DNA of 45,811 nt from Burkholderiales bacterium (GTDB lineage Bacteria; Pseudomonadota; Gammaproteobacteria; Burkholderiales; SG8-39): contig DATFDV010000295.1 in assembly GCA_035251855.1 (NCBI GenBank), positions 1-45,811 of the forward strand, in the 5' to 3' direction. A program made the position numbers and the translations under genes. Within the stretch, counting starts at the first letter, position 1; the number at the start of each line of letters is the position of its first letter. The notes beneath the pieces are model-generated. The model was not told the DNA's origin. It saw only the letters and a program-made list of their open reading frames with translations, and did no database searches. Positions 6,983 through 45,811 of the stretch are shown in pieces.

Positions 6983-7548
6983 GGCTTACGCTGGTTCGCC
7001 TGGTCGATCCGAGTTTTGATCCGCGCCTGGAACACCGACAGCGCCTCGCCCTTGCCGCCCTCGAAGCCGTCGCGCATGAAGCGCAGGCCCGGGATCCGGC
7101 GCGCACTACCGCCCTTCACGCGCGCCTCGAGCCGCCCGGGCCGGGTGAAGCGCCCGCCGCCGACCCTGCGCCGGCCGACCGCGGTGAAGCCGAACTCCTG
7201 CCAAAACCAGTAGAACGGGTCGTTCGGGTTTTTAGCCCCCCGCCCGCCCGATGCCCGCAGCTTGGCCTTGCTCGCCCGCACCGCGACGAACACCCCCAGC
7301 GTGCCGTCGCGCCCGTTGTAGCGCTTGCTGGAAAAGACCTTGATGCTGCGCTTCAAGAGCCCCGGCGTGCGGTAGCGCGAGGGCGTCTTCAGTACCGGCG
7401 CCCGCTGCTTCGCCCGATTCACGATCGGCCGCGCGGCATCGCGCAGGGCGCCTCGCACCACGCGCTTGCGCATATCCTGCTTGAGCGCTTCCACCGCGAG
7501 CTTGAGGTCGGCCAGCCCCTCGATCCGCGTCGTGATGCCGTCGCTCAT
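6979..7548 (-). CDS. HK97 gp10-family head-tail protein
   Basis: Start trimmed to ATG 7548, which forms an ATGA overlap with the upstream stop. 189 aa; MSDGITTRIEGLADLKLAVEAL...RVVRGALRDAARPIVNRAKQRAPV resembles the gp10 family. Confidence 0.65.
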   Translation of the reverse strand: MSDGITTRIEGLADLKLAVEALKQDMRKRVVRGALRDAARPIVNRAKQRAPVLKTPSRYRTPGLLKRSIKVFSSKRYNGRDGTLGVFVAVRASKAKLRASGGRGAKNPNDPFYWFWQEFGFTAVGRRRVGGGRFTRPGRLEARVKGGSARRIPGLRFMRDGFEGGKGEALSVFQARIKTRIDQANQRKP

Positions 7549-13116: not shown

Positions 13117-14406
13117 TTACTTCGAATGGTCGTAGCGCGCTTCCATCTCGGCCGCACTCGGCAGCTTGTCGCGCGGCGTGCGGCGCACGATCGGCCGCTC
13201 GCCGGAATCGTCCACCGTGATGTGCTCCGCGTCGTAGCCGTAGAAGCGCTCCGCTTCGGGCACGTTGGCGTCGAGCAGCGTGGAGTTCTCGGCGACCTGA
13301 ATCATCATGCCGCGCGCCGAGGCGAAACCCAGCCAGAATTCCACGCAGCCGCGACCTTTCTCCCGCGAGTGGTGCCCGGCATAGGAGAAATCGATGCCAT
13401 AGAGCCCGAGACGCTTGACGCCCAAGAAGGAAGCGTGCGCGACCGCATAGGCGACGGTGGAGTTGAAGTAGGCATGGCCGAATTTCGCGATCAGATCCTC
13501 GATCGGAAACGGCACCGAGCCCGGGTATTTATCCGGATACGCCTTGCTGGTGTAGATGGGACCGGGATGTCCGCGCAGCAGCTCCAGCATGTGCTTGATG
13601 GTCTCGTTGCCGGCGGCGGCGCGGGCTTCCTGCACCATCAGGTCGTCCATGTGGAAAATGCGATCGCACCGGATGACCCCCGCCATGCAGTTGATCGCCC
13701 ACACCTCCTCATAGAGAGCGCGGGCGCCGCCGTGAACCCCCGCGGCCGCGACAAAGGTGGACTTGGAATCGCCCATGCCGACCAGCGCCACCGACTCCGG
13801 GACGCGGTCCATCGCGCGCGGAATCGGCGAGCGCACTGCTTCGATCAGGATAGTGCGGCCGTTTTCGCCGTAGACCACCGGCGCGGCGGTATCGGCTTGC
13901 GTGAAGCACTCGCGCGGACTGAAGCCGCGCTCGCGCAGCAGCGTTTCCAGCTCGACGCGGCGATAGTGCCGAAAATGGAACGCGATCTGCGGCCGGTACG
14001 GAAACACCGCTTCGTTCGGGACGCTGACGAAAAGGTGTTCGACGCACCCGCGCAGACGTTCGAGCACCTGGCCGGGATTGGGCACGTGCTCGATCGCCTC
14101 GAACACCACCGCAGCATCGTGAAAGCCCACCGCCATCTGCGCGGCATCGCCCACACCCCACACGATGGACGGATGGTCGAAGTGCTTGCGCGCGTGCGCG
14201 ATGGCCTCGGCGTTGACATCGAAGGCGGTGACGCGAAAGCCGGCATCCGCCAGAATCTTGGCGCCGTAGCCTACCCCGCACGCGACATCGACAACCGTCT
14301 TCGCCCCAAGCTGGCGGAGCCGGTCCGCGGCCCAGAGATAGCGGGCGGTGTGGTCGGCGCGGATGCCGTCAACGGTCTCGGCGACCTGTCGTTCTCCGGG
14401 CTGCAT
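13117..14406 (-). CDS. Fusion protein: N-terminal class I SAM-dependent methyltransferase plus a C-terminal DUF115/Maf-like (putative glycosyl/nonulosonate transferase-like) domain
   Basis: 429 aa. Motif I VVDVACGVGYG then AFDV. The C-terminal half has VALVGMGDS, EVWAINCMAGVIRCDRIFHMDD and NSTVAYAVAHASFLGVKRLGLYGIDFSY. The C-terminal domain assignment is from memory of the family pattern only. Confidence 0.65.
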   Translation of the reverse strand: MQPGERQVAETVDGIRADHTARYLWAADRLRQLGAKTVVDVACGVGYGAKILADAGFRVTAFDVNAEAIAHARKHFDHPSIVWGVGDAAQMAVGFHDAAVVFEAIEHVPNPGQVLERLRGCVEHLFVSVPNEAVFPYRPQIAFHFRHYRRVELETLLRERGFSPRECFTQADTAAPVVYGENGRTILIEAVRSPIPRAMDRVPESVALVGMGDSKSTFVAAAGVHGGARALYEEVWAINCMAGVIRCDRIFHMDDLMVQEARAAAGNETIKHMLELLRGHPGPIYTSKAYPDKYPGSVPFPIEDLIAKFGHAYFNSTVAYAVAHASFLGVKRLGLYGIDFSYAGHHSREKGRGCVEFWLGFASARGMMIQVAENSTLLDANVPEAERFYGYDAEHITVDDSGERPIVRRTPRDKLPSAAEMEARYDHSK

Positions 14407-23348: not shown

Positions 23349-23539
23349 GGCGCGTGCCCTTCGATCAGCGCCCGGCGCGCCTGATCGGACAGCAGCCCCT
23401 CGCAGTCCATGATGAGCGGCAACGGGAAAAGCGGCAGCGTGTTCTCATCGCGCCACGGCCCCTGCGCCGCGCGGCCCACGCTGAGGAAAATCCGGGCGGC
23501 GGCGCGCCGTGCCCGCTTCTCGGCAGGGGTCGGCTTCAT
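23345..23539 (-). CDS. Hypothetical protein
   Basis: Start trimmed to ATG 23539. 64 aa. Confidence 0.45.
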   Translation of the reverse strand: MKPTPAEKRARRAAARIFLSVGRAAQGPWRDENTLPLFPLPLIMDCEGLLSDQARRALIEGHAP

Positions 23540-28439: not shown

Positions 28440-28480
28440 ATTCTACCCGATTTCGGGTTTTCGTCAACCCGGTATCGGGT
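28440..28480 (-). promoter_or_regulatory. Leftward early promoter (TTGACG-16-TAGAAT) with two 14-bp palindromic operators (28445-28458 and 28467-28480)
   Basis: Minus strand reads ACCCGATACCGGGTTGACGaaaACCCGAAATCGGGTAGAAT. One operator abuts the -35 and the other fills the spacer. Confidence 0.65.
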
Positions 28481-28891: not shown

Positions 28892-29090
28892 TAGAGAAAA
28901 GCGCGAGCTCGATTTGCTCCGCGCTCTAGACACAAAGCAACGAGATAAGTTGCTCGAGCAGATGGAGCGCCAGGTATTGGCGAACCGCATCACTGAGCGC
29001 GTTGCCGGGCGCAAGCTTCGCATCGTTGATGACAAGAAGATCGAGCGCGCCTTCGGCGCGCCGCGATGGAAGCATCGGGGAAAGCCATGA
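28878..29090 (+). CDS. Hypothetical charged/coiled-coil small protein
   Basis: 70 aa, GTG start. Coupled to the next gene by an ATGA overlap. Confidence 0.45.
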   Translation: MKLTDREKRELDLLRALDTKQRDKLLEQMERQVLANRITERVAGRKLRIVDDKKIERAFGAPRWKHRGKP

Positions 29091-29614
29091 AGAACCTGCT
29101 ATGGTTGACTCTTCTGCCAGCAATCGCGCTGGCACAAGAGATCGAGGTCAAAGGCGTGCCGTTCGGCGCCTCCGAAGCCACCATCCAGAAAACGGTGAAA
29201 GGGGCAGGTTGCGGTACACCTCCTCGTGGATCACGGGGCGATCGCTGGTGCCACGTGGTGCAAGGCGGCACTTATGCTGGCGCGCCGGCCCAAATCTTTT
29301 TCACCCTCTACAACGACTCAATGCAATCAGCTCATATCTTGTTTTCCCCCTCCGATTACGATGCCATAGTCGACGCGCTGGCAATTCGACACGGCCCAGC
29401 ACACCGGACGGACGTTGAGAAATTGACCACACGGATCGGGGCAGTCTACGAAAATACCATCACCCGCTGGAAAATCGTAGATGTTCTAATCACCGCGCGC
29501 CGCTACAGCTACAGCATCGACAAAGGCAGCGTCACCCTCGAAACCACCGCTGGTCGCGTAGAGGAAGCCATTCGCGCGCGCAAAGTGGCCCCTGAGCGCG
29601 CCAAGGACCTGTAG
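29087..29614 (+). CDS. Secreted protein (signal peptide MKNLLWLTLLPAIALA/QE), lysogeny-cassette cargo
   Basis: Start trimmed to ATG 29087. 175 aa. Classical n-h-c signal peptide with an ALA-Q cleavage site. Lower GC than the flanks. Confidence 0.6.
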   Translation: MKNLLWLTLLPAIALAQEIEVKGVPFGASEATIQKTVKGAGCGTPPRGSRGDRWCHVVQGGTYAGAPAQIFFTLYNDSMQSAHILFSPSDYDAIVDALAIRHGPAHRTDVEKLTTRIGAVYENTITRWKIVDVLITARRYSYSIDKGSVTLETTAGRVEEAIRARKVAPERAKDL

Positions 29615-29685
29615 CCCGAAATTTTCGGGACACACGCCAATTACCCGATTTCGGGTTGACAACTACCCGATTTAGGGTTTAGCAT
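29615..29685 (+). promoter_or_regulatory. Rightward early promoter (TTGACA-18-TAGCAT) with operators at 29643-29656 and 29665-29678, plus a related palindrome CCCGAAATTTTCGGG at 29615-29629
   Basis: Plus strand reads ACCCGATTTCGGGTTGACAactACCCGATTTAGGGTtTAGCAT. Same architecture as 28440-28480 in the opposite orientation. Confidence 0.65.
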
Positions 29686-30154: not shown

Positions 30155-30393
30155 CCACAGCACTCATCCACCGGCTCAACGCCGACGTCGTCGAATTCGT
30201 CGGCCGCTGTGGCGACGCGAAATTCCAGGCGGTCGAGATCAAGATCGAGGGCGTCGAGAGCGCCTACATGATGACGCTCGCGCTGCCCGCGTCCACCTGC
30301 CGCGGCCTCGCCGGGCGCGTCAACCCCGAGGCGGTCTATCGCGCGATCTGTCGCGCCATCAATGATTCCGGTGTGGGGATCGCGCTCCCGTGA
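30151..30393 (+). CDS. Hypothetical protein
   Basis: 80 aa, translationally coupled. Confidence 0.5.
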   Translation: MTTALIHRLNADVVEFVGRCGDAKFQAVEIKIEGVESAYMMTLALPASTCRGLAGRVNPEAVYRAICRAINDSGVGIALP

Positions 30394-30434
30394 TCCCGCA
30401 CGCCGCCGACACACCAGCAGAGAAGGAATCCATC

Positions 30435-30872
30435 ATGAACCCCGCCACCACAGAAAAACTCGAAGCGTCCGCCCCCGCACTGCGCTCCATCTCCCTTCCG
30501 CCGATCGGCGCCGCCTGGCACGGCGGCCTCTACGCCGGCATCGCGCGCGGCGCGGACGGCGCGCCCGACTACCACCTGATCCTCGGGCCCGAAGCGCCGA
30601 AGGCGCTCACCTGGGACGCCGCCTGCCAGTGGGCCGTCGCGCTCGACTTTGCCGGGCACCGCGATTTCACGCTCCCCGCGCGCCGCGAGCAATCGCTCCT
30701 CTTCGCCCATCTGCGCGAGGAATTCCAGGAGACGTGGTACTGGTCGGACGAGCCCTACGCTGGCGACGAGGCCTACGCCTGGGTCCAGGTCTTCGGCTTC
30801 GGTACCCAGTACGGCTACCGCCGCAAGTCGGACCACTACCGGGCCCGCGCCGTCCGCAGAGTGCCGCTTTAG
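30435..30872 (+). CDS. DGR target protein 1 (remote), DUF1566/C-type-lectin-like C-terminus carrying VR1
   Basis: Start trimmed to ATG 30435, preceded by AGAAGGAA. 145 aa; GGLYAGIA...LILGPE N-terminal motif is shared with targets 2 and 3. Ends ...WYWSDEPYAGDEAYAWVQVFGFGTQYGYRRKSDHYRARAVRRVPL. Confidence 0.8.
   Translation: MNPATTEKLEASAPALRSISLPPIGAAWHGGLYAGIARGADGAPDYHLILGPEAPKALTWDAACQWAVALDFAGHRDFTLPARREQSLLFAHLREEFQETWYWSDEPYAGDEAYAWVQVFGFGTQYGYRRKSDHYRARAVRRVPL
30752..30860 (+). repeat. DGR variable repeat VR1 (109 nt; 14 substitutions at TR adenines plus one extra codon)
   Basis: Hand alignment to TR 35744-35849. Confidence 0.8.
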
Positions 30873-30910
30873 TCATTCAACCATTCAGCCATTTTTTTCG
30901 GGAGACATCC

Positions 30911-31153
30911 ATGATTCCCGGCGCCGCCAGAATCACCCAGCGCGACACGGTCTACCGCATCGAGGACCCGCTCACCGGCCTGTGCATCCGTCTGCATTCG
31001 GTGCCGGTCGCAGGCGCCGCCGCGCCGCGCATCGTGCCCGAATTGCAACCCGCGAAGCTCTCCACCTGGTTCGCGACCCACGCGCAGGCCGCCGAGGCCT
31101 TCGCGCGCTTCCTCGGCGTTGCACCCTACGACATTGTCAGGAGCGATGCGTGA
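30911..31153 (+). CDS. Hypothetical protein
   Basis: 80 aa. ATG 30911 preceded by GGGAGA. Confidence 0.5.
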   Translation: MIPGAARITQRDTVYRIEDPLTGLCIRLHSVPVAGAAAPRIVPELQPAKLSTWFATHAQAAEAFARFLGVAPYDIVRSDA

Positions 31154-31389
31154 AGCGCAATCCATTCATCGCCGCCGCCATGGCAGCCGCGGTTATCGCG
31201 TCGATGCCGTTCGAGCGCATGGCACGCGCGCGGCGGGCGGAGAATCGGCGCCGCGTTCGCGAACGCGGCAAGACTGGCGTGACCTATAAACCGAACGGCG
31301 AGCGCGAGTGCGCCCGCCGTGTGCGGCAGATCGCCAAAGGCCAGCTCACCGAATCGAACGGTCTCGTGCGCGAGCAGAGGAACGCATGA
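31150..31389 (+). CDS. Hypothetical basic protein with an N-terminal hydrophobic segment
   Basis: 79 aa. GTGA overlap at the start and ATGA overlap at the end. Confidence 0.45.
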   Translation: MKRNPFIAAAMAAAVIASMPFERMARARRAENRRRVRERGKTGVTYKPNGERECARRVRQIAKGQLTESNGLVREQRNA

Positions 31390-31664
31390 ACGACCGCCCG
31401 CTCTGGCTCCCCGGCATCGCTGCCGCGCTCGCGCTGCTCATCCTCTCCGGCTGGCTCGACGGGCGCGCGAAGGACGAGCGCCTGGCCGAACTGATCGCCG
31501 CCCAGCGCCACGCCGCGCCGCTCACGGCCTGCCCGCCGCCGGCGCCCGGGATGACCGACACCATCGTCCTGGTGGTCGAATCCCGCGCCGACGCCGAGCC
31601 CCTCGTCACCGGCTGCTCGCGCATCGCCGAGCGCCGCCACATCGAACGCTGGCGGCCGTGGTGA
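31386..31664 (+). CDS. Hypothetical membrane-anchored protein
   Basis: 92 aa. MNDRPLWLPGIAAALALLILSGW is a TM-like segment. Confidence 0.5.
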   Translation: MNDRPLWLPGIAAALALLILSGWLDGRAKDERLAELIAAQRHAAPLTACPPPAPGMTDTIVLVVESRADAEPLVTGCSRIAERRHIERWRPW

Positions 31665-31873
31665 ACGGCAATCTCTACCAGAAGATCGAGCGCGACAACG
31701 CGCTCGGCGCGTGCGTGCACAACCTCCACAACGTCATCGCCTTGCTGCGCGCCGTGCGCCACTACGACGGCATCCATCAATTCAATCTCGAGCTGCCCTC
31801 AGAGCAGCAACTCATCGACGCCATCCACCGGTGCGCGTCCATCCACAAGCAGACTCTGGAGCCCACCCGATGA
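31658..31873 (+). CDS. Hypothetical protein
   Basis: 71 aa, GTG start overlapping the upstream stop. ATGA-coupled to the next gene. Confidence 0.45.
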   Translation: MVNGNLYQKIERDNALGACVHNLHNVIALLRAVRHYDGIHQFNLELPSEQQLIDAIHRCASIHKQTLEPTR

Positions 31874-32343
31874 ACAAATCCGCCAAGATCCGCGAGTACA
31901 TCACCGCCCACCCCCGCTGCGACGCGAGCGCCGTGTCCGGCGCGACCGGCATCGACCTCAAATTCGTGCAAACGATCTGCGCCCAGCGGGTCAAGGCGGG
32001 CGAGTTCGTTGCCACCACCGATGGGCTCCATTCCGTCCGCCCGGGCTACGTGGCGCACGCCCGCCGCAAGCCCGCGCCGAAAAAGCGCCGCGTCCTGGCC
32101 GGCGAACGGCGCGCGAAGAAAGCGAAACCGGCCAAGCAGCGCACGCTGCGCGATGTGAAGGTGCCGAAGGCAAAGGGCAACGGCCCTCTGCGCGAGGCCG
32201 TGCTGGCGAATTACCGCCAGGCCAGCGCCGCGCTGCGCACCGCGATCGTCGCCGGCGTCACCGGCTACAACGAGGAGCCGATCCTCAAGCTCGCGCTCGA
32301 CGCGCACGCCCGGGCCGAAGCGCTGCTCGAGGCGGCCGCGTAG
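31870..32343 (+). CDS. Hypothetical DNA-binding-like protein (winged-helix N-terminus, Lys/Arg-rich middle)
   Basis: 157 aa from ATG 31870. Confidence 0.5.
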   Translation: MNKSAKIREYITAHPRCDASAVSGATGIDLKFVQTICAQRVKAGEFVATTDGLHSVRPGYVAHARRKPAPKKRRVLAGERRAKKAKPAKQRTLRDVKVPKAKGNGPLREAVLANYRQASAALRTAIVAGVTGYNEEPILKLALDAHARAEALLEAAA

Positions 32344-32382
32344 GCGCTGTCTTTTCATCCCCCGCCATCCCCGGAGGTAATC

Positions 32383-34137
32383 ATGTCTGCCGTCCTTGAA
32401 CGCCCCGCCGTCGAGCTGCTCGACGCCCGCACCGAACTGCTGCCGCTCGACTCGATCGTGCCGAGCACCACCCACACCCAGACGCTGCGCCGCCAGCGTT
32501 ACGACCCGGAGAAGCTGCTCGAGCTGGCTGCGAGCATCAAGACCAGCGGCCTGCTGCAACCGATCCTGGTGCGGCCGTGGTCCGGTAGCCACGTCACCAA
32601 CAGCAAGGGCGCCACCCCGAAATACGAGCTCGTCGCCGGCGAGCGCCGCTACCTCGCCGCCCAGCGCGCCGGCTACGCCCACATCGCCGCCCACATCCGC
32701 GATCTCACCGACGCCCAGGTGATCGAGGCCCAGCTCGTCGAGAACCTGCAGCGCGACGACCTGCAGGCGCTGGAGGAGGCCGAGGGCTACAAGGAGTTGA
32801 TGACGCTGAAGGGCATCGACGCCGACGAGGTCGCGCACTTGATCGGCAAGAGCCGCAGCTACGTCTACGCCCGCCGCAAGCTGCTCGATCTCTGCCCCGC
32901 CGCGCGCGAGGCGCTGCAGGCCGGCAAGCTCGACGCCAGCAAGGCGCTGCTGCTCGCGCGGATCAAAGGCGAGAAACTGCAGGCGAAAGCGCTCAAGCTC
33001 GTCACCGAGCAGGGCGACTGGTATTCCTATCGGCGGCTGGTGGAGAAACTGCGCGAGGACTTCATGATCCCGATCGGCAGCGCGCCGTTCACGATCGACC
33101 AGGACGGGCTCATGACCAGGAAAGGGCTGACGCTACCGGCGTGCATCGACTGCCCGCAGTTCAGCCGCAACGATGCCGAGCTGCTGCGGGAGATCGACCA
33201 TGCAGACGTCTGCACCGACCGCGCCTGCTTCGAGCAGAAGTGCGGCGCGGTCTACGCCCTACGCCGCGCCGACGCCGAAGCAGCCGGACGCGCCATTCTC
33301 ACCGGCGATGAGGCCGCAGCCATCATTCCCGGCCAATACGACGGCGGCATCAAGAACGGCTATGTCGCCCTCGACGAGCCCTGCGCCGACGTTGACTTCC
33401 CCGAGCCCGAGCCGAAGCAGGAGAAGGACGAGAGCGACGATGCCTTCCAGGTTCGCTCGGACGCGTGGTACGATCGTATGGGTGCCTGGACGCCACCGAC
33501 GTACCGCCAGGCCATGGGCGGCGAAGTGCCGCCGGAGACGGTGCTTGCGCAAGCGAAGAACGGCCGTCTGGTCGAGCTGGCGCCGGTCAAGGCAGCCAGG
33601 AAAGCGCTTACCCAGGCCGGCATCAAGCTCGAGCACTGGCGCTGGAACGCCAAGCAACAGGACGCCAAAAGCGCGGAGGATCGGGCGGAAAACCAGGAGC
33701 GCCAGACGGCAGAGCGGGCGCGCGAACTCGAACGGCAGCGGGTCGAGGAGGCGTTCCGGCTGCGTCTTTTCCGCGAGATCCACGCCAGGTGGAAAGGGCC
33801 GCTCAAGCGCCCCGACCTCGATCGCATCTATGAGCATATGCTCGAATCGGGCTGCAACTGGGACCCGATCGAAGCCGTCCACGACGGCACGCCCAAGCCG
33901 GCCAAGCTGAAGGACGACGAGCTCCTGCGCCTGATCGTCGAGATCAGCGTCGCGCACGAGGTGGATGCCTACGAGAAGCCGTCCGGTCTGCTCGAGCTCG
34001 CCCAGCGTTTCAAGATCGACGCCAAGAAAATCCGCAGCGAGGTCGTCGCCGAGCTCAAGCCCGTGAGCGTGCCGGCGCAGTCCGACGCCAAGAAGCCCGG
34101 AAAGAAAAAAGCGGCGAAGAAGACGGCGAAAAAGTAA
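32383..34137 (+). CDS. ParB/Srx N-terminal-domain protein with a long C-terminal extension
   Basis: 584 aa. ...SGLLQPILVRP...YELVAGERRYLAAQRAG... is a ParB box-like motif. Lys-rich tail. Confidence 0.7.
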   Translation: MSAVLERPAVELLDARTELLPLDSIVPSTTHTQTLRRQRYDPEKLLELAASIKTSGLLQPILVRPWSGSHVTNSKGATPKYELVAGERRYLAAQRAGYAHIAAHIRDLTDAQVIEAQLVENLQRDDLQALEEAEGYKELMTLKGIDADEVAHLIGKSRSYVYARRKLLDLCPAAREALQAGKLDASKALLLARIKGEKLQAKALKLVTEQGDWYSYRRLVEKLREDFMIPIGSAPFTIDQDGLMTRKGLTLPACIDCPQFSRNDAELLREIDHADVCTDRACFEQKCGAVYALRRADAEAAGRAILTGDEAAAIIPGQYDGGIKNGYVALDEPCADVDFPEPEPKQEKDESDDAFQVRSDAWYDRMGAWTPPTYRQAMGGEVPPETVLAQAKNGRLVELAPVKAARKALTQAGIKLEHWRWNAKQQDAKSAEDRAENQERQTAERARELERQRVEEAFRLRLFREIHARWKGPLKRPDLDRIYEHMLESGCNWDPIEAVHDGTPKPAKLKDDELLRLIVEISVAHEVDAYEKPSGLLELAQRFKIDAKKIRSEVVAELKPVSVPAQSDAKKPGKKKAAKKTAKK

Positions 34138-34159
34138 CCCCACCACATCTGGAGACCCC

Positions 34160-34669
34160 ATGAAAAAGCACACCGCAGCAGAAGTGATCCCCACCGTCGC
34201 CGGCACACCGTTCGCCGGCGGCTTCTATGTCGGCCGTTTCTTCCTCGGCAGCGACGCTTACGCACTCGTGGTCGCCCCCAAGACCGAAGCGAGCGAGCTT
34301 TCCGGCCCATGGAGTAAGGCAGAGAAGAAGGTAGCCGGCGCGCGCTCGTACAACGACGGCGTCGCCAACACCGCCGCCATGGTGAAAGCCGGCAGCGCGC
34401 TCGCCAAGTCGATCCGCGCGCTCGATATCGGCGGCTTCGACGACTGGTACCTGCCGAGCCGGCTGGAGTCCCTGCTGCTCTTCGGCGAGCTCCAGGGCCT
34501 CAAGAGCTTCAAGGCCAACGCCTTCGAGCGCGACTGGTATTGGACCTCTACGCCCTACGCTGGCGACGAGGCCTACGCCTGGATCCAGACCTTCAACTAC
34601 GGTGACCAGAACGACACCCTCAAGTCGTACCACTACCGGGCCCGCGCCGTCCGCAGAGTGAAAATTTAG
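34160..34669 (+). CDS. DGR target protein 2, DUF1566/C-type-lectin-like C-terminus carrying VR2
   Basis: 169 aa. ...DWYLPSRLESLLLF...WYWTSTPYAGDEAYAWIQTFNYGDQNDTLKSYHYRARAVRRVKI. Confidence 0.85.
   Translation: MKKHTAAEVIPTVAGTPFAGGFYVGRFFLGSDAYALVVAPKTEASELSGPWSKAEKKVAGARSYNDGVANTAAMVKAGSALAKSIRALDIGGFDDWYLPSRLESLLLFGELQGLKSFKANAFERDWYWTSTPYAGDEAYAWIQTFNYGDQNDTLKSYHYRARAVRRVKI
34550..34657 (+). repeat. DGR variable repeat VR2 (108 nt; 7 differences from TR, all at TR adenines)
   Basis: Hand alignment codon by codon. Confidence 0.9.
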
Positions 34670-34704
34670 CGATTCAACCATTCAGTCATTTTTAGGGGAT
34701 TCGC

Positions 34705-35184
34705 ATGAACCATGAATTCGTCTCGCTGCCCGCGGCCGATGTGCTGCGCGCGGTGTCCGCACAGACGCTCGCCCGGGAGCTGTTCGAGCGCATCAGCAAC
34801 GGCCGCGCCGCACCCATCGGCGCCCAGCGCGCCCTGCCCGCGATCGGCGGCGACTTCGAGGGCGGCATATACGCCGGCCTCACCCTCGTCGACAACACGC
34901 CCTTCGCCCTGGTGCTGCTCCCGGGCGAGGCCGAAGAGATCAACTGGAAGGACGCGCGCGCGTGGGCCGAAAAGCAGGGCGGCATGTTGCCCTCGCGCAT
35001 CGATGCGCTGATGCTGTTCGAGAACCTGAAGGACAGCTTCAAGCCGGAATGGCACTGGACCGGCACGCCCTCCGCTGGCGACGAGGCCTACGCCTGGATC
35101 CAGCTCTTCTACGACGGTACCCAGCTCACCAACCCCAAGTCGAGCCACTGCCGGGCCCGCGCCGTCCGCAGAGTAGCGATTTGA
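34705..35184 (+). CDS. DGR target protein 3, DUF1566/C-type-lectin-like C-terminus carrying VR3
   Basis: 159 aa. ...GGMLPSRIDALMLF...WHWTGTPSAGDEAYAWIQLFYDGTQLTNPKSSHCRARAVRRVAI. Confidence 0.85.
   Translation: MNHEFVSLPAADVLRAVSAQTLARELFERISNGRAAPIGAQRALPAIGGDFEGGIYAGLTLVDNTPFALVLLPGEAEEINWKDARAWAEKQGGMLPSRIDALMLFENLKDSFKPEWHWTGTPSAGDEAYAWIQLFYDGTQLTNPKSSHCRARAVRRVAI
35065..35172 (+). repeat. DGR variable repeat VR3 (108 nt; 12 differences from TR, all at TR adenines)
   Basis: Hand alignment codon by codon. Confidence 0.9.
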
Positions 35185-35221
35185 CCATTCAGTAATTCAG
35201 CTATTTAGGTCTTTTCTCAGC

Positions 35222-35578
35222 ATGGCGCTTCACTCCAGCCTGCCGATCTACAAGGCGGTCTACGACCTGCTCTGCCTCGTCACCGAGGTGACGCGCAACA
35301 TGCCGCGCGATTACAAGCACTCGATCGGCGCGCGTGTCCGCGATGAGTGCGTCTCGCTCACGGTGCTCGTCTTCCGCGCGAACTGCGCCCGGGAGAAGGC
35401 ACCGCACATAGAGGAGCTGCTCGAGCGCCTGCAGGTGGCCGAGTTGCTGGTGCGGCTATCCTGCGATCTGCGCTGCATTTCGATCGAGCAATACGCGCGC
35501 GTCGTGGCCCTCACCACCAGCGTCGGCAAGCAGGCCACCGGCTGGCGTAAGCACTTCACCCCTTCGCCTGCTGCATGA
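35222..35578 (+). CDS. avd: DGR accessory variability determinant (Avd; four-helix-bundle family)
   Basis: 118 aa. MALHSSLPIYKAVYDLLCLVTEVTRNMPRDYKHSIGARVRDE... resembles Avd and 23S-rRNA-IVS-family proteins. Position is immediately upstream of TR and RT. Confidence 0.8.
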   Translation: MALHSSLPIYKAVYDLLCLVTEVTRNMPRDYKHSIGARVRDECVSLTVLVFRANCAREKAPHIEELLERLQVAELLVRLSCDLRCISIEQYARVVALTTSVGKQATGWRKHFTPSPAA

Positions 35579-36945
35579 CCGTCAAGGCGATCATGCCCGT
35601 GCGAAATTATCATCTGGTCGCGCCGCTGCCTCACGAGGGCACCGCCATACGCACCACGGATACCGCCGGCACCTATCCGGGCCGGTCCGGCGCAGTTTCC
35701 CGGCTGAGTGATCGGCCGGGCGACGTCGATCGCGCGAACGGACGCCCTACGCTGGCGACGAGGCCTACGCCTGGATCCAGAACTTCAACAACGGTAACCA
35801 GAACAACAACCACAAGTCGAACCACTACCGGGCCCGCGCCGTCCGCAGATGATCGCCATGCTGAGCTTTCCTTCGCGGCGCTGGCCGCCGCCTACTTCGA
35901 CTGCCGCCGCACCAAGCGCACCAGCGCCTCGGCGCTTGCCTTCGAGATCGATCTCGAGCGCAACCTCGCCGAGCTCCACGCCGAGCTCGCCGCCGCCGTC
36001 TACCGGCCCGGGCGCTCGATCTGCTTCGTCATCACCCGGCCCAAGCCGCGCGAAGTGTGGGCCGCCGCGTTCCGCGACCGCATCGTGCATCACCTGCTCT
36101 ACAACGCGATCGGGCAACGCTTCGAGCGATCGTTCATCGCCGACTCATGCGCCTGCATCCCGGGACGCGGCACGCTGTATGCCGTCGAGCGACTGGAGCA
36201 CAAGGTGCGCTCCATCACGCAGAACTGGTCGCGGCCGGCGTGGTACCTGAAGTGCGACATTGCCAACTTCTTCGTCGCGATCGACAAGCGCATCCTGTGG
36301 CGGCGACTCGCAGCCCGGATCCCGGAGCCCGCCTGGCGCGCGCTCGCCCACCTGGTGTTATTCCACGATCCGCGTGCCGACGTCGAGCTGCGCAGCCCGA
36401 CTGCGCGCTTCGCGCTGATCCCGCCGCACAAGAGCCTGTTCAGCCAGCCCGCACACCTCGGGCTCCCGATCGGCAATCTATCCAGCCAGTTTTTCGCCAA
36501 CGTCTACCTCGACGCGCTCGACCAGCACGTCAAGCACGGGCTGCGTGCGCGGCATTACATACGCTACGTTGACGACTTCCTGCTGCTGCACGAATCGCCG
36601 CAGCAGTTGAACGCCTGGCACGCCGAGATCGCCGCCTTCCTGCCAGCGCGGCTCAACGTCCAGCTCAACCCGGCGAAGACCATCCTGCAGCCGGTCTCCC
36701 GCGGAATCGACTTCGTCGGCCAGGTGGTGAAGCCATGGCGCCGCACGCTGCGCCGTCGCACCTTCAACGAAGCGCTCGCCCGCGTCGCCGCCGCCGATCC
36801 TGCCGACGTCCGGACATCCGCCAATAGCTACTTCGGCCTGCTGCGCCAGGCCACCGCCAGCCACCACGACCGTGCCCGGCTCGCGAACCTCGTGCGCCGG
36901 CGCGGGCATGCCGTCAATCGCGCGCTCACGAAGGCCTACGCATGA
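35575..36945 (+). CDS. DGR reverse transcriptase (true start uncertain; the only in-frame ATG/GTG/TTG codons are at 35575 and 35593, upstream of the TR)
   Basis: DGR-RT motifs LPIGNLSSQFFANVYL and YIRYVDDFLLL. The conserved N-terminal region begins around 35862 (LSFAALAAAYFDCRRTKR). ATG 35575 forms an ATGA overlap with the avd stop. Confidence 0.85.
   Translation: MTVKAIMPVRNYHLVAPLPHEGTAIRTTDTAGTYPGRSGAVSRLSDRPGDVDRANGRPTLATRPTPGSRTSTTVTRTTTTSRTTTGPAPSADDRHAELSFAALAAAYFDCRRTKRTSASALAFEIDLERNLAELHAELAAAVYRPGRSICFVITRPKPREVWAAAFRDRIVHHLLYNAIGQRFERSFIADSCACIPGRGTLYAVERLEHKVRSITQNWSRPAWYLKCDIANFFVAIDKRILWRRLAARIPEPAWRALAHLVLFHDPRADVELRSPTARFALIPPHKSLFSQPAHLGLPIGNLSSQFFANVYLDALDQHVKHGLRARHYIRYVDDFLLLHESPQQLNAWHAEIAAFLPARLNVQLNPAKTILQPVSRGIDFVGQVVKPWRRTLRRRTFNEALARVAAADPADVRTSANSYFGLLRQATASHHDRARLANLVRRRGHAVNRALTKAYA
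35742..35849 (+). repeat. DGR template repeat (TR), AAC-rich
   Basis: In the VR frame it reads TPYAGDEAYAWIQNFNNGNQNNNHKSNHYRARAVRR*. It is the invariant, A-rich partner of VR1-3. Confidence 0.9.
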
Positions 36946-37952
36946 ACAAGACCGCCATCGAGTGGACCGACGCCACCTGGAACCCGGTCACTGGCTGCCA
37001 CAAGGTGAGCCAGGGCTGCCACCACTGCTACGCCGAGCGTATCTGGCGGCGCACCTATCCCGATCGCCCCTTCACCGACGTGCGCTGCCATCCCGAGCGC
37101 CTCGACCAGCCGCTGCGCTGGACGAAACCAAAGCGCATCTTCGTCAACTCGATGAGCGATCTCTTCCACGAGGACGTGCCGGACGAGTTCGTCGCCGATG
37201 TGTTCGCTTACATGGCCTACTCCAGACAGCACCAGTTCCAGGTGCTCACGAAGCGGCCGCAGCGCATGCTGTCGCTGCTCACCAGCGCGGCCTTTGCAGA
37301 TCTTTACGACACTTCCGCAGCGTTAGCTCACGATGATGCCTGCGACATCCTCGGCCGCCGCGGCGAGTTTGATCCGAATAGGCGTCTCACCACCGACATA
37401 CGTGCGATGGACGAATCGCTCCCGCGTCCGAACGTCTGGCTCGGCGTCAGCGTCGAGGATCAGGCGACCGCTGACGAGCGGATCCCGCTGCTGCTACAGA
37501 CGCCGGCGGCGGTGCGCTTCATCAGCGCCGAGCCGCTGCTCGGGCCGATCGACATCTATCTACCACATGCAAACTGGGCGACGCATCCCGACAACAACGA
37601 GGACCACGCCACCGTAATCGACTGGTGCATCGCCGGCGGCGAGAGCGGCCCGAAGGCGCGGCCGTCACATCCTGACTGGTTCCGGTCACTGCGCGACCAG
37701 TGCGCCGCGGCCGGCGTGCCGTTTTTCTTCAAGCAGTGGGGACGTTACCTGCCCGGCGAGCTCAAACGAGGCGATCCGATTCTCCGCTGGCAGAACGGCG
37801 CTAAGCAGTATTACAACGACGACGACGACATCCGCTTCAATGACTGCTGGTTGACAAACGACGAGCGCGGCCTTTGCGTCGCCGTGCCGTGCTCCAAGAA
37901 GCAGGCCGGCCGCCTTCTCGACGGCCGCGAGCATTCGGAGTATCCGGCGTGA
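36942..37952 (+). CDS. Phage Gp37/Gp68 family protein (DUF5131)
   Basis: 336 aa. MNKTAIEWTDATWNPVTGCHKVSQGCHHCYAE is the hallmark N-terminus. ATGA overlap with the RT stop. Confidence 0.8.
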   Translation: MNKTAIEWTDATWNPVTGCHKVSQGCHHCYAERIWRRTYPDRPFTDVRCHPERLDQPLRWTKPKRIFVNSMSDLFHEDVPDEFVADVFAYMAYSRQHQFQVLTKRPQRMLSLLTSAAFADLYDTSAALAHDDACDILGRRGEFDPNRRLTTDIRAMDESLPRPNVWLGVSVEDQATADERIPLLLQTPAAVRFISAEPLLGPIDIYLPHANWATHPDNNEDHATVIDWCIAGGESGPKARPSHPDWFRSLRDQCAAAGVPFFFKQWGRYLPGELKRGDPILRWQNGAKQYYNDDDDIRFNDCWLTNDERGLCVAVPCSKKQAGRLLDGREHSEYPA

Positions 37953-38137
37953 AGGACACGCTGCCCACCAAGCGCCAGGTCATCGAAGAACTCCGCAAGG
38001 AGATCGACGCCTGGCGCTCGTCATACCGCAACCACAAGACCGACGAGATCGACGACCCGGTCGCCCTCCATGCGATCCGCTGCCTCGAGGTCGCGCTGCT
38101 CATCGTGCGCGAGCACTTCCCGCGGAGGAAGCGGTGA
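37949..38137 (+). CDS. Hypothetical protein
   Basis: 62 aa from GTG 37949 (GTGA overlap). Confidence 0.45.
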   Translation: MKDTLPTKRQVIEELRKEIDAWRSSYRNHKTDEIDDPVALHAIRCLEVALLIVREHFPRRKR

Positions 38138-39809: not shown

Positions 39810-40156
39810 TCGGCGCCGGTAGGCGTGGGGTTCGCCAGGATGGCCTTGATCTCGGCGAGCTCGGGATCCCGCTTGCGGCCTTCCGCGCGGATGGCGGTCA
39901 GCGTCCGCCGGGCCTCAGCGATGATGGCCTTGCCGGTCTTGTCGAGCGCGTCGACGCCGGCGTTCTGGCGCTCGAGCGCATCGGACAGCACCTTGGCCTG
40001 TGCCCGCGCCGTCACCAGCTCCACCTTGCAGTCGAGGCGGAAGGTGCGCTCGAGGAGCGCCCAGGCGGTGAGCGCCGCGCACAGCACGCCCATGCCCACC
40101 AGCACCCAGCCCAGCGGCGAGAGGGCCGGCAGGGCGATAAAACCGCGTTGGTTCAT
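39764..40156 (-). CDS. i-spanin (N-terminal TM plus coiled coil)
   Basis: Start trimmed to ATG 40156, preceded by GAGGGAG. 130 aa. Confidence 0.65.
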   Translation of the reverse strand: MNQRGFIALPALSPLGWVLVGMGVLCAALTAWALLERTFRLDCKVELVTARAQAKVLSDALERQNAGVDALDKTGKAIIAEARRTLTAIRAEGRKRDPELAEIKAILANPTPTGADCGRAWREIEGRARP

Positions 40157-43135: not shown

Positions 43136-45811
43136 TCACGCCACCGTCACCGAGGCCGTCGTCGGATAGCCCAGCCCGTATTCACCCGAGACCTGCGCTA
43201 CGTCGAAGTCCACCGTCGTCAGCACGCCGCCAAAATCAGTCGTCTGATCCGCCGCCGAGTAATCGACCTGCGGCTCGTCGGATTCGAGCGTGCGCACAAT
43301 GTCCGCGCCGTCGTAGATGTTCCACGTGTAGCGCTCGAACGCTTCGCCGAGCGGCGCATCCGATCCGGTGCGCCACAGGTTCTTCAAGCGCGTGCGGCGC
43401 ACGCATTTGAGCCTCAGATCGCCGGACGCCGAGATGCGCCCGGCAGCCGCATGCCACGGCGCGAGCGGGCGCTTGCGGCGCGCGGTATTGACGAACGAGC
43501 GCGTCACCGCCGAATCGATGGACTGGTTGATCGTCACCGCCTTGTAGCGGCGCGCGACATCCACGTCGGCGAAGGATTGCTCGATCGAACGCAGCTCGCC
43601 CGTCAACGCGACCACCGTCTCGCCCACCACGTGGCCGCTCATGTAGGGTTCCGTGCCGTTTCGCCCGCGCAGCAGCCCCGAGAGGTCGTAGACGCCGGTC
43701 GAGATCAAGGTCGCGGTTCGCGCATAGACCAGCTCGTTGCCGATCAGGTAGCCGGTCGCGGTGCCCGCCAGGATCTGCTCCCGCGTGTAGCTCGCGAGCA
43801 CGCCGGCGCCGACGTAGACGCGCACGACATTGGCCTCGTCGAATAGCTCGTTCCCTTCCAGCGCCGAAAACGTCGCGAGCGCCGTCACCGCGCGCCCAAA
43901 GATCGCGGGCACGACCACCGTGCCGTTGGGCACCGCGGCCCAGCTCACGCCCGCATCGTCGCTCTGGTAGAGCTGCCCGCCCGGCCACTCGGCGGTGACG
44001 CCCTTCATGGCAAGCACGAAGCCCGGATCGTCGTCGGCATCGCGCAGGAGGTGCGTGTCCAGCAGCTCGAACTCCGACGGCCCCTTGAGCGGAATGGTCT
44101 GCGGCGGCTGCCCATCGGCGCCGGCGCCGGGCGCGGCCTGCGTCCACACCGCGGCCAGATCCCGGACCGCTTTCCACACGATGACGCCGTCGGCGCCTTC
44201 ATGCCGGTCGAGAAAGCGCACGCGGCGCGTGACGTCGTTGGCCGTGACATTCGCGATATCGGTCGGTTCGTAGCGCGTGTAATCGAGCCCGGTCGTCAGG
44301 TCGAAGGCGCCTTCGGCCGCCACCAGGAACTCGAACTTGGCCTTGTCCGCGATCTGCCGCGCACGATCGTCCGACATGACGATCGGCAGATTGAGGTTCA
44401 CTTCCTGCATGCCGCCGGCGCCGGCGCGGTCACTCGACTGCTTGCCCACCTGGTAGTCGGCTGCCGGGTTCATGTAGGTGACATGCACCATGCGCGGATA
44501 GTCGAGCGCGCCCGAGGCGGTGGTGGTGAGCGGGTCGGGCGGTTCGTCCGATGCTCCGAGGACGCGAGCGCCGAGATCGGCCTGCGGGATCGTGACGGCT
44601 GCCGCCCCGCCGCGGCGCACGAACTTGATCTTGTAGTCGCTCTCGGTCACATCGAAGAAACCAGCAAGCGCCAGCGGCTCGACCAGCTCACGGATCGTGC
44701 CCTGGCGCGTCACCGGATAGCCGTCGAAGGTGAGCGCCGAGAGATCGGTGACCTCGAGATCGCCGGCAACGAGCGGCGAGCGCGTGGCGAGCGCCGTGAT
44801 GATGGTGGCAGCCGAGGGCGGCGTCGCGACCACGCGCCGGGCAGGCTCGATCAGTTGCAGCATCGAGGGCGCGCCGAAGACATCGCCGTCTTCGGTCACC
44901 ACTGGTGCTACGCCGTTGAAAACGCTGCCCCCGCACACGAGATTCACCGTGCCCTGCGTGCCGGTGTCGAGCTCGGTCATGGTGCCGGTCTCGACCTTCC
45001 AGAAGCGGCGCGTCGTGGCCGAGCGCTGGACGTAGAGGTTGCCGTAATCGTCCATCACCATGCCGGTCACGAGCCCGTAGTCGGTCGCCCCCATCCCCGT
45101 GGAGAGCACCACGTAATCGAGCAGTGCGCCCGCCTGGTCGTATTTATGGATACGCGCGGCCTCGTTCGCGCCGCCGGACTGGATGTAGAGATTGCCGTCC
45201 GTGCCCACCAGGCCGCGGGATGGCATGTTCGCGAAGGTCACCAGATGCACGTAGGCGTGCGTTTCGAGATCCACGTATCCGAAGCCGTGGTTCGCGGCGC
45301 CGCGCCGTGACACGTATAGACGGCCTGCGATGCGCCCGCCGTCCCAGAAGATCGATGTGTAATCTGCGCCGGTCGAGATCTGTTCTTTGGTCGCCGTAGT
45401 GCCGGCGAAGGTGAACGAATGCTGCCGGTAGAGAGAACCGCCGATCTGCACACCGCCGACCGCGGCTTGATCGTGATACTCGACGTAGAGTTCGAGCGTG
45501 TCGTCTTCTCCGTCCGGGTCGTATTCGAAGATGCGGCCAAACTGGTTGGTCCCGAAGCCAGACATCGTCGCCGACTGATCGACGCCCGACTGCTGCAGGC
45601 GGTGCAGCACCGCGCCGCCGGAAGCCTTCCACCATACGGCGCCGTTACGGCCGAGTCCCTGCAAATAGAAATGATCGCCAGCGCTCGTCAACAGCGTGGT
45701 CGAAGTCTCGGCGTAGAGATCGGAGAGGGCGATCCGGCATTCATGCGACGGCGTGGTGTCCTGGTAGGAAACCCACGCTTTACCGTCGGCCATCAACATG
45801 GCCGATTCGAG
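43136..45811 (-). CDS. Host-specificity / distal tail protein (RcGTA g15-like), C-terminal part; 45671-45811 duplicates 1-141 and the ORF continues upstream at 142..894
   Basis: The frame is open to the end of the window and continuous with the minus frame of 1..894. Confidence 0.8.
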   Translation of the reverse strand, partial: LESAMLMADGKAWVSYQDTTPSHECRIALSDLYAETSTTLLTSAGDHFYLQGLGRNGAVWWKASGGAVLHRLQQSGVDQSATMSGFGTNQFGRIFEYDPDGEDDTLELYVEYHDQAAVGGVQIGGSLYRQHSFTFAGTTATKEQISTGADYTSIFWDGGRIAGRLYVSRRGAANHGFGYVDLETHAYVHLVTFANMPSRGLVGTDGNLYIQSGGANEAARIHKYDQAGALLDYVVLSTGMGATDYGLVTGMVMDDYGNLYVQRSATTRRFWKVETGTMTELDTGTQGTVNLVCGGSVFNGVAPVVTEDGDVFGAPSMLQLIEPARRVVATPPSAATIITALATRSPLVAGDLEVTDLSALTFDGYPVTRQGTIRELVEPLALAGFFDVTESDYKIKFVRRGGAAAVTIPQADLGARVLGASDEPPDPLTTTASGALDYPRMVHVTYMNPAADYQVGKQSSDRAGAGGMQEVNLNLPIVMSDDRARQIADKAKFEFLVAAEGAFDLTTGLDYTRYEPTDIANVTANDVTRRVRFLDRHEGADGVIVWKAVRDLAAVWTQAAPGAGADGQPPQTIPLKGPSEFELLDTHLLRDADDDPGFVLAMKGVTAEWPGGQLYQSDDAGVSWAAVPNGTVVVPAIFGRAVTALATFSALEGNELFDEANVVRVYVGAGVLASYTREQILAGTATGYLIGNELVYARTATLISTGVYDLSGLLRGRNGTEPYMSGHVVGETVVALTGELRSIEQSFADVDVARRYKAVTINQSIDSAVTRSFVNTARRKRPLAPWHAAAGRISASGDLRLKCVRRTRLKNLWRTGSDAPLGEAFERYTWNIYDGADIVRTLESDEPQVDYSAADQTTDFGGVLTTVDFDVAQVSGEYGLGYPTTASVTVA
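45671..45811. repeat. Terminal direct repeat, second copy (identical to 1-141)
   Basis: Read directly. Confidence 0.95.

Follow-up and report, generated by a model that had tools for sequence, protein, structure and literature searches.

Organization of the retroelement locus

The contig DATFDV010000295.1 of the Burkholderiales assembly GCA_035251855.1 is a complete temperate phage genome, and within its 45,811 nucleotides (nt), called the window hereafter, lies what is very probably a functional diversity-generating retroelement (DGR) with three target genes (Table 1). The element comprises the gene avd, a template repeat (TR) and the open reading frame (ORF) of a reverse transcriptase (RT), and each target gene ends with a variable repeat (VR) homologous to the TR. 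The order avd-TR-RT corresponds to architecture B1 of Wu et al. (2018), with targets of the DUF1566 type.

When read in the VR frame, the TR contains eight AAC codons. The VRs lie in frame at the 3' ends of the three target genes and stop 9-12 nt before the stop codon. On realignment, no mismatch was found at non-adenine TR positions inside the TR/VR homology. In an ungapped comparison, VR2 differs from the TR by seven substitutions, all at TR adenines; the 12 substitutions of VR3 and the 14 of VR1 are likewise confined to TR adenines. If substitutions are placed at random over the repeat, the probability of all hitting adenines is 9e-5 for VR2, 5e-8 for VR3 and 1.4e-9 for VR1, and the joint probability for the pooled VRs (33 of 33 substitutions) is about 1e-20. 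At least one VR is variable at 21 of the 31 TR adenines, and the recoded residues derive mostly from AAC codons and fall in the C-terminal part of the fold. The coordinates of the TR and the three VRs, as well as the seven and 12 adenine-only differences of VR2 and VR3, had been given in an earlier reading of the letters (the sequence-only reading), and their recomputation led to the same result; the peptides quoted there for the TR, VR2 and VR3 are also correct. VR1 had been named as a repeat too, which its 14 adenine-only substitutions confirm, but its additional codon had been missed: relative to the TR, VR1 carries a 3-nt insertion in a run of AAC AAC AAC. Indels opposite AAC codons have already been documented in other DGRs. 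The 22-nt GC-rich 3' end of the TR (CCGGGCCCGCGCCGTCCGCAGA, 35828-35849) forms a segment resembling the initiation of mutagenic homing (IMH) sequence; it is identical in the TR and the three VRs and occurs in exactly four copies in the window. A similar GC-rich end with three mismatches at 40002 was considered as a fourth VR and dismissed, as there is no repeat array there.

Judging by its sequence, the RT belongs to the DGR clade. Its best match among solved structures is bRT, the DGR enzyme of Bordetella phage BPP-1 (8ub7; E 1.9e-35), followed by weaker matches to a group II intron maturase (4e-8) and a retron-type RT (~2e-4). The DGR signature [I/V/L]GxxxSQ (defined in PMC7826257) is present as IGNLSSQ, the catalytic YVDD is intact, and counterparts of bRT R74 (KPR) and I181 (PIG), which promote adenine mutagenesis, are kept. 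Assignments to other RT classes were rejected: the group II model TIGR04416 reaches 84 bits (cut-off 300) and retron St85 36 bits (cut-off 235), and NCBIfam scores for Drt and AbiA enzymes are far under their cut-offs. The Rfam scan of the window gave no group II intron or retron RNA family. With bRT as the best match among solved structures and the other models so far under cut-off, the placement among DGR enzymes and not with retron, group II or Abi RTs, which the sequence-only reading had proposed, holds; the RT motifs and the Avd ORF that it quoted are both present. For Avd, the sole NCBIfam match is DivGenRetAVD with 61 bits, under the cut-off of 80, and a sequence search against the PDB gave no match.

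Table 1. Coordinates of the DGR, its target genes and associated sequence elements in the window (aa, amino acids).
Feature	Position	Strand	Description
Target gene 1	30435-30872	+	145 aa from ATG 30435; 160 aa if GTG 30390
VR1	30752-30860	+	109 nt; aligned from TR 35744 onward
8-nt array after VR1	30867-30898	+	CTTTAGTC ATTCAACC ATTCAGCC ATTTTTTT
Target gene 2	34160-34669	+	169 aa; Pfam Lcl_C 46 bits; stand-alone DUF1566/C-type-lectin-fold protein
VR2	34550-34657	+	108 nt
8-nt array after VR2	34664-34695	+	ATTTAGCG ATTCAACC ATTCAGTC ATTTTTAG
Target gene 3	34705-35184	+	159 aa; paralogue of targets 1 and 2
VR3	35065-35172	+	108 nt
8-nt array after VR3	35179-35210	+	ATTTGACC ATTCAGTA ATTCAGCT ATTTAGGT
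avd	35222-35578	+	118 aa; Pfam bAvd 53.5 bits, cut-off 40
Rfam RT-15 (RF03018)	35562-35744	+	171.6 bits, gathering score 82, E 1e-41
RT ORF	35575-36945	+	456 aa from ATG 35575; Pfam RVT_1 above gathering score
Predicted long-range helix	35611-35616 with 35846-35851	+	CAUCUG with CAGAUG
TR	35742-35849	+	108 nt; 31 A, 41 C, 25 G, 11 T

Recent rewriting of VR2

A second record of the same genome, reverse-complemented and with another start point on the circle, is a contig of an ENA metagenome (ERZ27257130:k141_2566773). It was first met through the protein cluster of target 2, in which the second 169-aa member differs only inside the VR. Over the ~45.2 of 45.67 kb compared, the two records differ at 13 positions. 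Ten of these lie in VR2 (34583-34628), each at a TR-adenine site, and the remaining ones are isolated single nucleotide polymorphisms (SNPs) at 23355, 25238 and 34845. The density of differences is ~0.09 per nt in VR2 versus 7e-5 elsewhere, a local excess of ~1400-fold. VR2 has therefore been recently rewritten, and the presence of ten TR-adenine changes amid three other SNPs indicates that the element was recently active. In this comparison of two assembled records, the variation restricted to TR adenines that the sequence-only reading expected in the VRs is found in VR2; it is not found in VR1 and VR3, which are identical in both records, as is the TR. The SNP at 34845 is located at a third-codon position in target gene 3 and leaves the protein unchanged.

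Target proteins

The start of target gene 1 is placed differently by two gene callers. Its product is a stand-alone DUF1566/Lcl_C protein (Pfam Lcl_C 38.1 bits, cut-off 34.9) encoded ~4 kb upstream of the DGR core. In target 3, the Lcl_C match is limited to the C-terminal 44 residues and stays under the cut-off (23 bits); in an alignment, target 3 is 46% identical to target 2. For target 2, an AlphaFold model with a mean predicted local distance difference test (pLDDT) value of 92.5 was obtained from an alignment of 50 sequences. The model has one significant match in the PDB, the C-terminal domain of Legionella Lcl (8q4e; E 4.6e-5, template modelling score of 0.67 on the target), and a long series of C-type lectin-like domains ranks next with weak E-values. 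The C-type-lectin fold, suggested earlier as something to be examined by structure prediction, is in this way supported by the model. A search with the target 2 sequence against the PDB gave only a weak match to 8q4e (E 0.37). Among predicted viral structures (BFVD), the model matches DUF1566 domains, some of them stand-alone and others terminal domains of long fibre-like proteins.

The DGR and its three targets form one co-directional cluster (~28.5-39.3 kb) with the integrase at its end, and the structural genes are located on the opposite strand. From this arrangement it follows that the targets lie outside the tail module; they belong to the early/lysogeny gene cluster (ParB ... integrase). 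By inspection of the N-termini by eye, no evident signal peptide or lipobox was seen in the three targets. Most likely, the targets act as ligand binders inside the cell, or at any rate not in the virion, and not as receptor-binding proteins of the tail. According to a weaker reading, the DGR may serve host takeover or anti-defence instead of receptor binding, the targets being intracellular products of the early operon. The locus thereby raises the question of what a phage gains from hypermutating three small non-tail lectin-fold proteins beside ParB, recombination and integration genes.

Related elements and the closest phage

Loci with at least 60% RT identity were taken from RT protein scans of Burkholderiales and Pseudomonas genomes and IMG/VR contigs (n = 122), and in each of them the region upstream of the RT was compared by a script with the rest of the locus in search of VRs. 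The clade contains 251 VRs with 3419 substitutions, 96% of them at TR adenines. As a rule, two VRs are located ~0.7 and ~1.4 kb upstream of the TR, and a remote third one is present in 24 loci; small gaps against the TR of the same locus were seen in seven VRs. Relatives with identical RT genes differ in their VRs only, at 14-20 positions, and 70 of 72 differences are at TR-adenine sites (19/19, 14/14, 20/20 and 17/19).

The closest GenBank phage is Burkholderia phage Magia (MT701587), whose RT is 70.7% identical. Its announcement (Microbiol Resour Announc 2021; PMC7883833) reported a potential DGR and named two short target genes (47 and 57). A third Magia VR was found at 7257-7347, at the end of CPT_Magia_046 (annotated as hypothetical), with 11 substitutions, all at TR adenines. 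Magia and the window share the succession of a remote target, two adjacent small lectin-fold targets, avd, the RNA motif RT-15, TR and RT, the TR core with its GC-rich 3' end, AT-rich repeats after each VR, and the position of the element in the early/recombination-integrase region of a temperate phage. Outside the DGR core, however, the two are not similar at the nucleotide level. Magia was described as a myophage (PMC7883833), whereas the window has siphovirus tail genes resembling those of gene transfer agents (GTA). Between the remote target and the core, ParB is encoded in the window but RecT, a nuclease and an ATPase in Magia, and an in-frame ATG inside the TR of Magia is ACG in the window.

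The RT-15 RNA and a proposed priming geometry

RT-15 is the only Rfam match in the window and spans the full model (positions 1-192), extending from the avd stop codon to the 5' edge or first bases of the TR. It occupies the same place in 19 of 19 clade members tested and in three more distant relatives. Weinberg et al. (2017; PMC5737381), who described RT-1 to RT-19, gave RT-15 no function, tied only RT-10 to a DGR (the BPP-1 spacer between TR and brt), and speculated that other RT motifs may belong to retrons or DGRs; here, RT-15 is placed between avd and TR of a DGR clade and ends at the 5' edge of the TR. No publication linking RT-15 to DGRs or describing the 8-nt repeats discussed below was found, the coverage of the literature being incomplete and thus no proof of absence. 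Across 42 clade members, the internal helices of RT-15 covary strongly, with 96% of cells paired compared to 26-42% after the partners are shifted by 1-3 columns. For the same members, RNAalifold predicts a long-range helix between the unpaired conserved AUCUG of RT-15 and CAGAU at the TR 3' end, and no consensus structure downstream of the TR; the Rfam scan gave no RT-10 match in the window. The CAUCUG strand of the window sits 1 nt 5' of UCGCGC (35618-35623), which forms the outer helix of RT-15 with GCGCGA (35732-35737), and the latter lies 4 nt upstream of the TR. The 5-bp core of the long-range helix is almost invariant and a sixth pair covaries weakly. Double compensatory changes are present in two members, CUCUG/CAGAG in L006 and AUCCG/CGGAU in L042.

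In the BPP-1 ribonucleoprotein, spacer (Sp) nucleotides 47-56 pair with TR 117-129, ending at the priming nucleotide, and two nt later Sp 59-70 pairs with an avd segment just upstream of the TR, the 'cPRT Stop'. By analogy, RT-15 may be the functional counterpart of the BPP-1 spacer RNA in a permuted form. Priming would probably take place via the CAUCUG/CAGAUG pairing, with the adjoining outer helix of RT-15 acting as a stop for the synthesis of complementary DNA (cDNA). cDNA synthesis would then begin at G35845, which fits the observation that A35847 and A35849 never vary. The more complete proposal, that the accessory RNA is circularly permuted relative to BPP-1, with the priming and stop strands upstream inside RT-15 and with the AT-rich array marking the targets, is put forward tentatively and is given somewhat less than an even chance. 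Such a permutation would free the downstream side of the TR, so that the RT frame can start inside the TR or run through it. It also suggests that an RNA of the architecture seen by cryo-electron microscopy for BPP-1 can be assembled when the partner strand lies on the opposite side of the template, and it offers RT-15, an orphan motif of Rfam, a defined location and a role open to testing.

Overlap of the RT frame with the TR

The RT-homologous sequence starts ~10-20 nt 3' of the TR, at about 35866, and the alignment with bRT implies additional N-terminal residues encoded inside the TR. An RT start just 3' of the TR was rejected, as there is no in-frame ATG, GTG or TTG there; between 35600 and 35900 none of the three is found in frame. 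The RT ORF extends across the 3' portion of RT-15 and the entire TR. The ORF 35575-36945, taken as the RT in the sequence-only reading, is a reasonable frame, with the amendment that its first ~275 nt (35575-35849) also hold RT-15 and the TR.

Comparison with 112 distinct relatives puts this overlap into context. An in-frame ATG inside the TR is present in 82 of them, and 33 of those 82 have a stop codon further upstream within the TR. In the remaining 30, which have no such ATG, the frame is without exception open across the TR as far as an ATG further upstream. At the position of this ATG the window carries ACG (35791). Among the 30 relatives without the in-TR ATG, the distance between an RT-15 anchor and the RT frame is divisible by three in 28, and so are 12 of their 14 distinct RT-15-to-RT lengths; among members with a stop codon in the TR, divisibility by three is seen in only 6 of 42. 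The frame conservation in relatives lacking the in-TR ATG speaks for translation across the 3' portion of RT-15 and the TR. In the window, the RT is probably translated in this manner from ATG 35575, which overlaps the avd stop codon as ATGA, or from ATG 35593, which comes after AAGG. The TR would then double as a coding sequence of its own RT. The public NCBI annotation of a 332-aa RT (35947-36945) has ATC as its first codon (MDLERN...). It looks too short and lacks the conserved N-terminal stretch alignable to bRT residues 19-45.

AT-rich arrays after the VRs

Six nt past each VR starts an array in which an 8-nt unit, ATTYRNYN, occurs four times; its GC content is 31% versus 65% for the window. 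The pattern occurs at only three places in the window, namely after VR1, VR2 and VR3, the number expected by chance being 0. Of the four units, the first overlaps the target gene's stop codon; the other units are non-coding and extend to the ribosome-binding site of the next gene. In 221 distinct VR flanks from the clade, an ATT repeated at 8-nt intervals is 70-90% conserved; it is lacking in 104 TR flanks. No stable hairpin was found within 55 nt after any VR (z-scores from +0.8 to +1.35).

The arrays bear on the distinction between the IMH of a recipient VR and its TR counterpart (IMH*). TR and VRs diverge directly after the shared GC-rich 22 nt, and the array follows only the VRs. Since the GC-rich end is the same in both, the mark of the recipient would lie further downstream; the same point was raised by Wu et al. 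(2018) for DGRs with identical TR and VR ends. The AT-rich 8-nt array is probably the target marker, in place of the BPP-1 cruciform, and would represent a different kind of target-site marker. Alternatively, it might be a signal for translation or transcription conserved among the paralogous genes.

Comparison with other DGRs

The system of BPP-1 (mtd-avd-TR-brt) agrees with the window in its Avd, an RT with [I/V/L]GxxxSQ, adenine-specific mutagenesis, a VR at the C-terminus of a C-type-lectin-fold protein, and a GC-rich 3' end common to TR and VR. The predicted RNA geometry is also the same, with a short TR-3'-end duplex adjoining a duplex formed with a segment just 5' of the TR. The differences concern the targets, the RNA and the recipient site. 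BPP-1 has one target, the tail-fibre protein Mtd, whereas the window has three small non-tail targets. The structured RNA is downstream of the TR in BPP-1 (the spacer, Rfam RT-10) but upstream in the window (RT-15), where the RT ORF overlaps the TR. In BPP-1 a GC-rich inverted repeat follows the VR, in the window the AT-rich 8-nt array instead, and IMH and IMH* differ in BPP-1 while the TR and VRs of the window have the same GC-rich segment. In the DGR of Legionella pneumophila (LdtA), the VR is likewise located in a DUF1566-type C-terminal lectin-fold domain. However, LdtA is a surface lipoprotein, whereas the targets in the window are products of phage early/lysogeny-cluster genes in which inspection revealed no evident signal peptide or lipobox. 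The DUF1566 type corresponds to VR class CLec2, category 'd' of Wu et al. (2018), who also described cassettes with several targets, short targets consisting of DUF1566 only, and the nesting of genes between target and core.

Functional interpretation and alternatives

Taken together, the data are best read as a functional DGR of the avd-TR-RT type in a temperate tailed phage with three paralogous lectin-fold targets, to which a probability of roughly 0.93 is assigned. RT affiliation, realignment of the repeats, VR heterogeneity and target fold all favour the DGR signature with three targets in one phage that the letters alone had suggested. On the paradigm of BPP-1, from which this step is inferred, an RNA including RT-15 and the TR would be transcribed. 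The RT-Avd complex would then copy the TR into cDNA with random bases opposite adenines, and the cDNA would replace the VR at the 3' end of a target gene. This is a known kind of system, since a widespread prophage clade had already been noticed and the layout is published in Magia. The succession of remote target, two adjacent targets, avd, TR and RT recurs in more than 100 prophages of Burkholderiales and Pseudomonas. What look like undescribed features of the clade are the location of RT-15 between avd and TR, the AT-rich 8-nt repeats after the VRs, and the RT frame running through the TR. The value of the locus is that of an unusually clean case, in which substitutions are adenine-only and VR2 has been rewritten while the rest of the genome is almost unchanged.

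Other explanations of these data differ in how much of the evidence they can accommodate. If the three C-termini were ordinary paralogous ends diverged by point mutation or gene conversion, and the RT that of a retron, a group II intron or an abortive infection/defence-associated (Abi/DRT) system, then the common flanking sequence of the targets, which are true paralogues, would be expected, and the weak PADLOC and NCBIfam RT-domain matches to DRT, retron and group II models would be meaningful. However, this reading does not account for the confinement of 33 of 33 substitutions to the 31 adenines of the TR (joint probability ~1e-20), nor for the TR copy, which is not the end of a paralogous gene; moreover, the non-DGR models score far under their cut-offs, bRT is matched at 1.9e-35, and the adjacent gene encodes Avd, so that it is considered extremely improbable. 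A relic, in which the adenine-only pattern records past activity and the element is dead, e.g., through loss of the RT start in the TR, is somewhat better placed but still very unlikely. It would be consistent with ACG 35791 in place of the in-TR ATG of most relatives, with the codon of VR1 that is lacking from the TR, and with VR1 and VR3 being unchanged between the records. It is contradicted by VR2, which differs at ten TR-adenine sites against three other SNPs in ~45 kb, by the intact catalytic motifs of the RT, and by the 30 of 30 relatives without the in-TR ATG that keep the RT frame, with 12 of 14 indel lengths being multiples of three.

The difference in VR2 could also be an effect of assembly, with both records built from the same reads and each consensus being a single route through a mixed population, or a chimera of it. 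The two records agree in length (45,811 nt) and in an overlap of 141 nt between their ends, as is typical of one assembler setting. Nevertheless, the different start points, the opposite strands and the three further SNPs show that they are not the same contig, and an assembly effect is regarded as unlikely, although less so than the two preceding explanations. Even if an assembly mixture were responsible, the result would be within-population variation of VR2 at TR-adenine sites, as an active DGR produces.

Several observations weigh against a fully functional element as proposed here. Current activity is shown for VR2 only, VR1 and VR3 being the same in both records, and the two records may not come from independent samples. 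The extra codon of VR1 means that this repeat has not been overwritten by the present TR since the indel arose, unless slippage of the RT produced it. The RT has no canonical start codon near its conserved N-terminus and, with ACG replacing the in-TR ATG, its expression depends on an upstream start buried in the 5' hairpin of RT-15. The long-range pairing proposed for priming rests mainly on invariant complementarity, with two clear compensatory cases only. Finally, the GC-rich inverted repeat needed for efficient homing in BPP-1 is not found after the VRs; according to Wu et al. (2018), such a repeat is present in only 34% of DGRs and is thus not a defining feature of them.

Genome and gene neighbourhood

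The first 141 nt of the window are identical to nt 45671-45811, giving a circular-looking assembly with a unique genome of 45,670 bp; an end identity of this length is the signature of a circular contig from an assembler run with k=141. A 1142-aa tail gene (Phage-tail_3/Rcc01698_C) is cut by the window ends and whole in the rotated ENA record. The genome encodes small and large terminase, portal, S78 protease, capsid and a GTA-like siphovirus tail module, and also a primase/polymerase-like protein, ParB and a tyrosine integrase. A megablast search of 30300-38000 against GenBank phages gave no close relative and only short matches to a DUF5131 gene (phage Gp37/Gp68-type, 36942-37952). This gene overlaps the RT stop codon (ATGA) and strongly matches the PADLOC candidate defence models PDC-M41B and PDC-M30B (E ~1e-77); it is probably outside the DGR, because Magia has other genes at the same position.

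A 608-aa ORF in the window has no PHROGs match and is probably not a called gene. In the early cluster, the ORF 29066-29614 upstream of target 1 has a signal-peptide-like N-terminus (MKNLLWLTLLPAIALAQE...) and no Pfam match. Two copies of a 37-nt element, 78% identical to each other, are located at 28444-28480 and 29642-29678 and contain near-palindromic ACCCGA-NN-TCGGGT half-sites; lying at the start of the early gene cluster, they may be operator-like sites. Amid the head and tail genes, a 429-aa protein with an S-adenosylmethionine-dependent methyltransferase domain is encoded on the minus strand (13117-14406).

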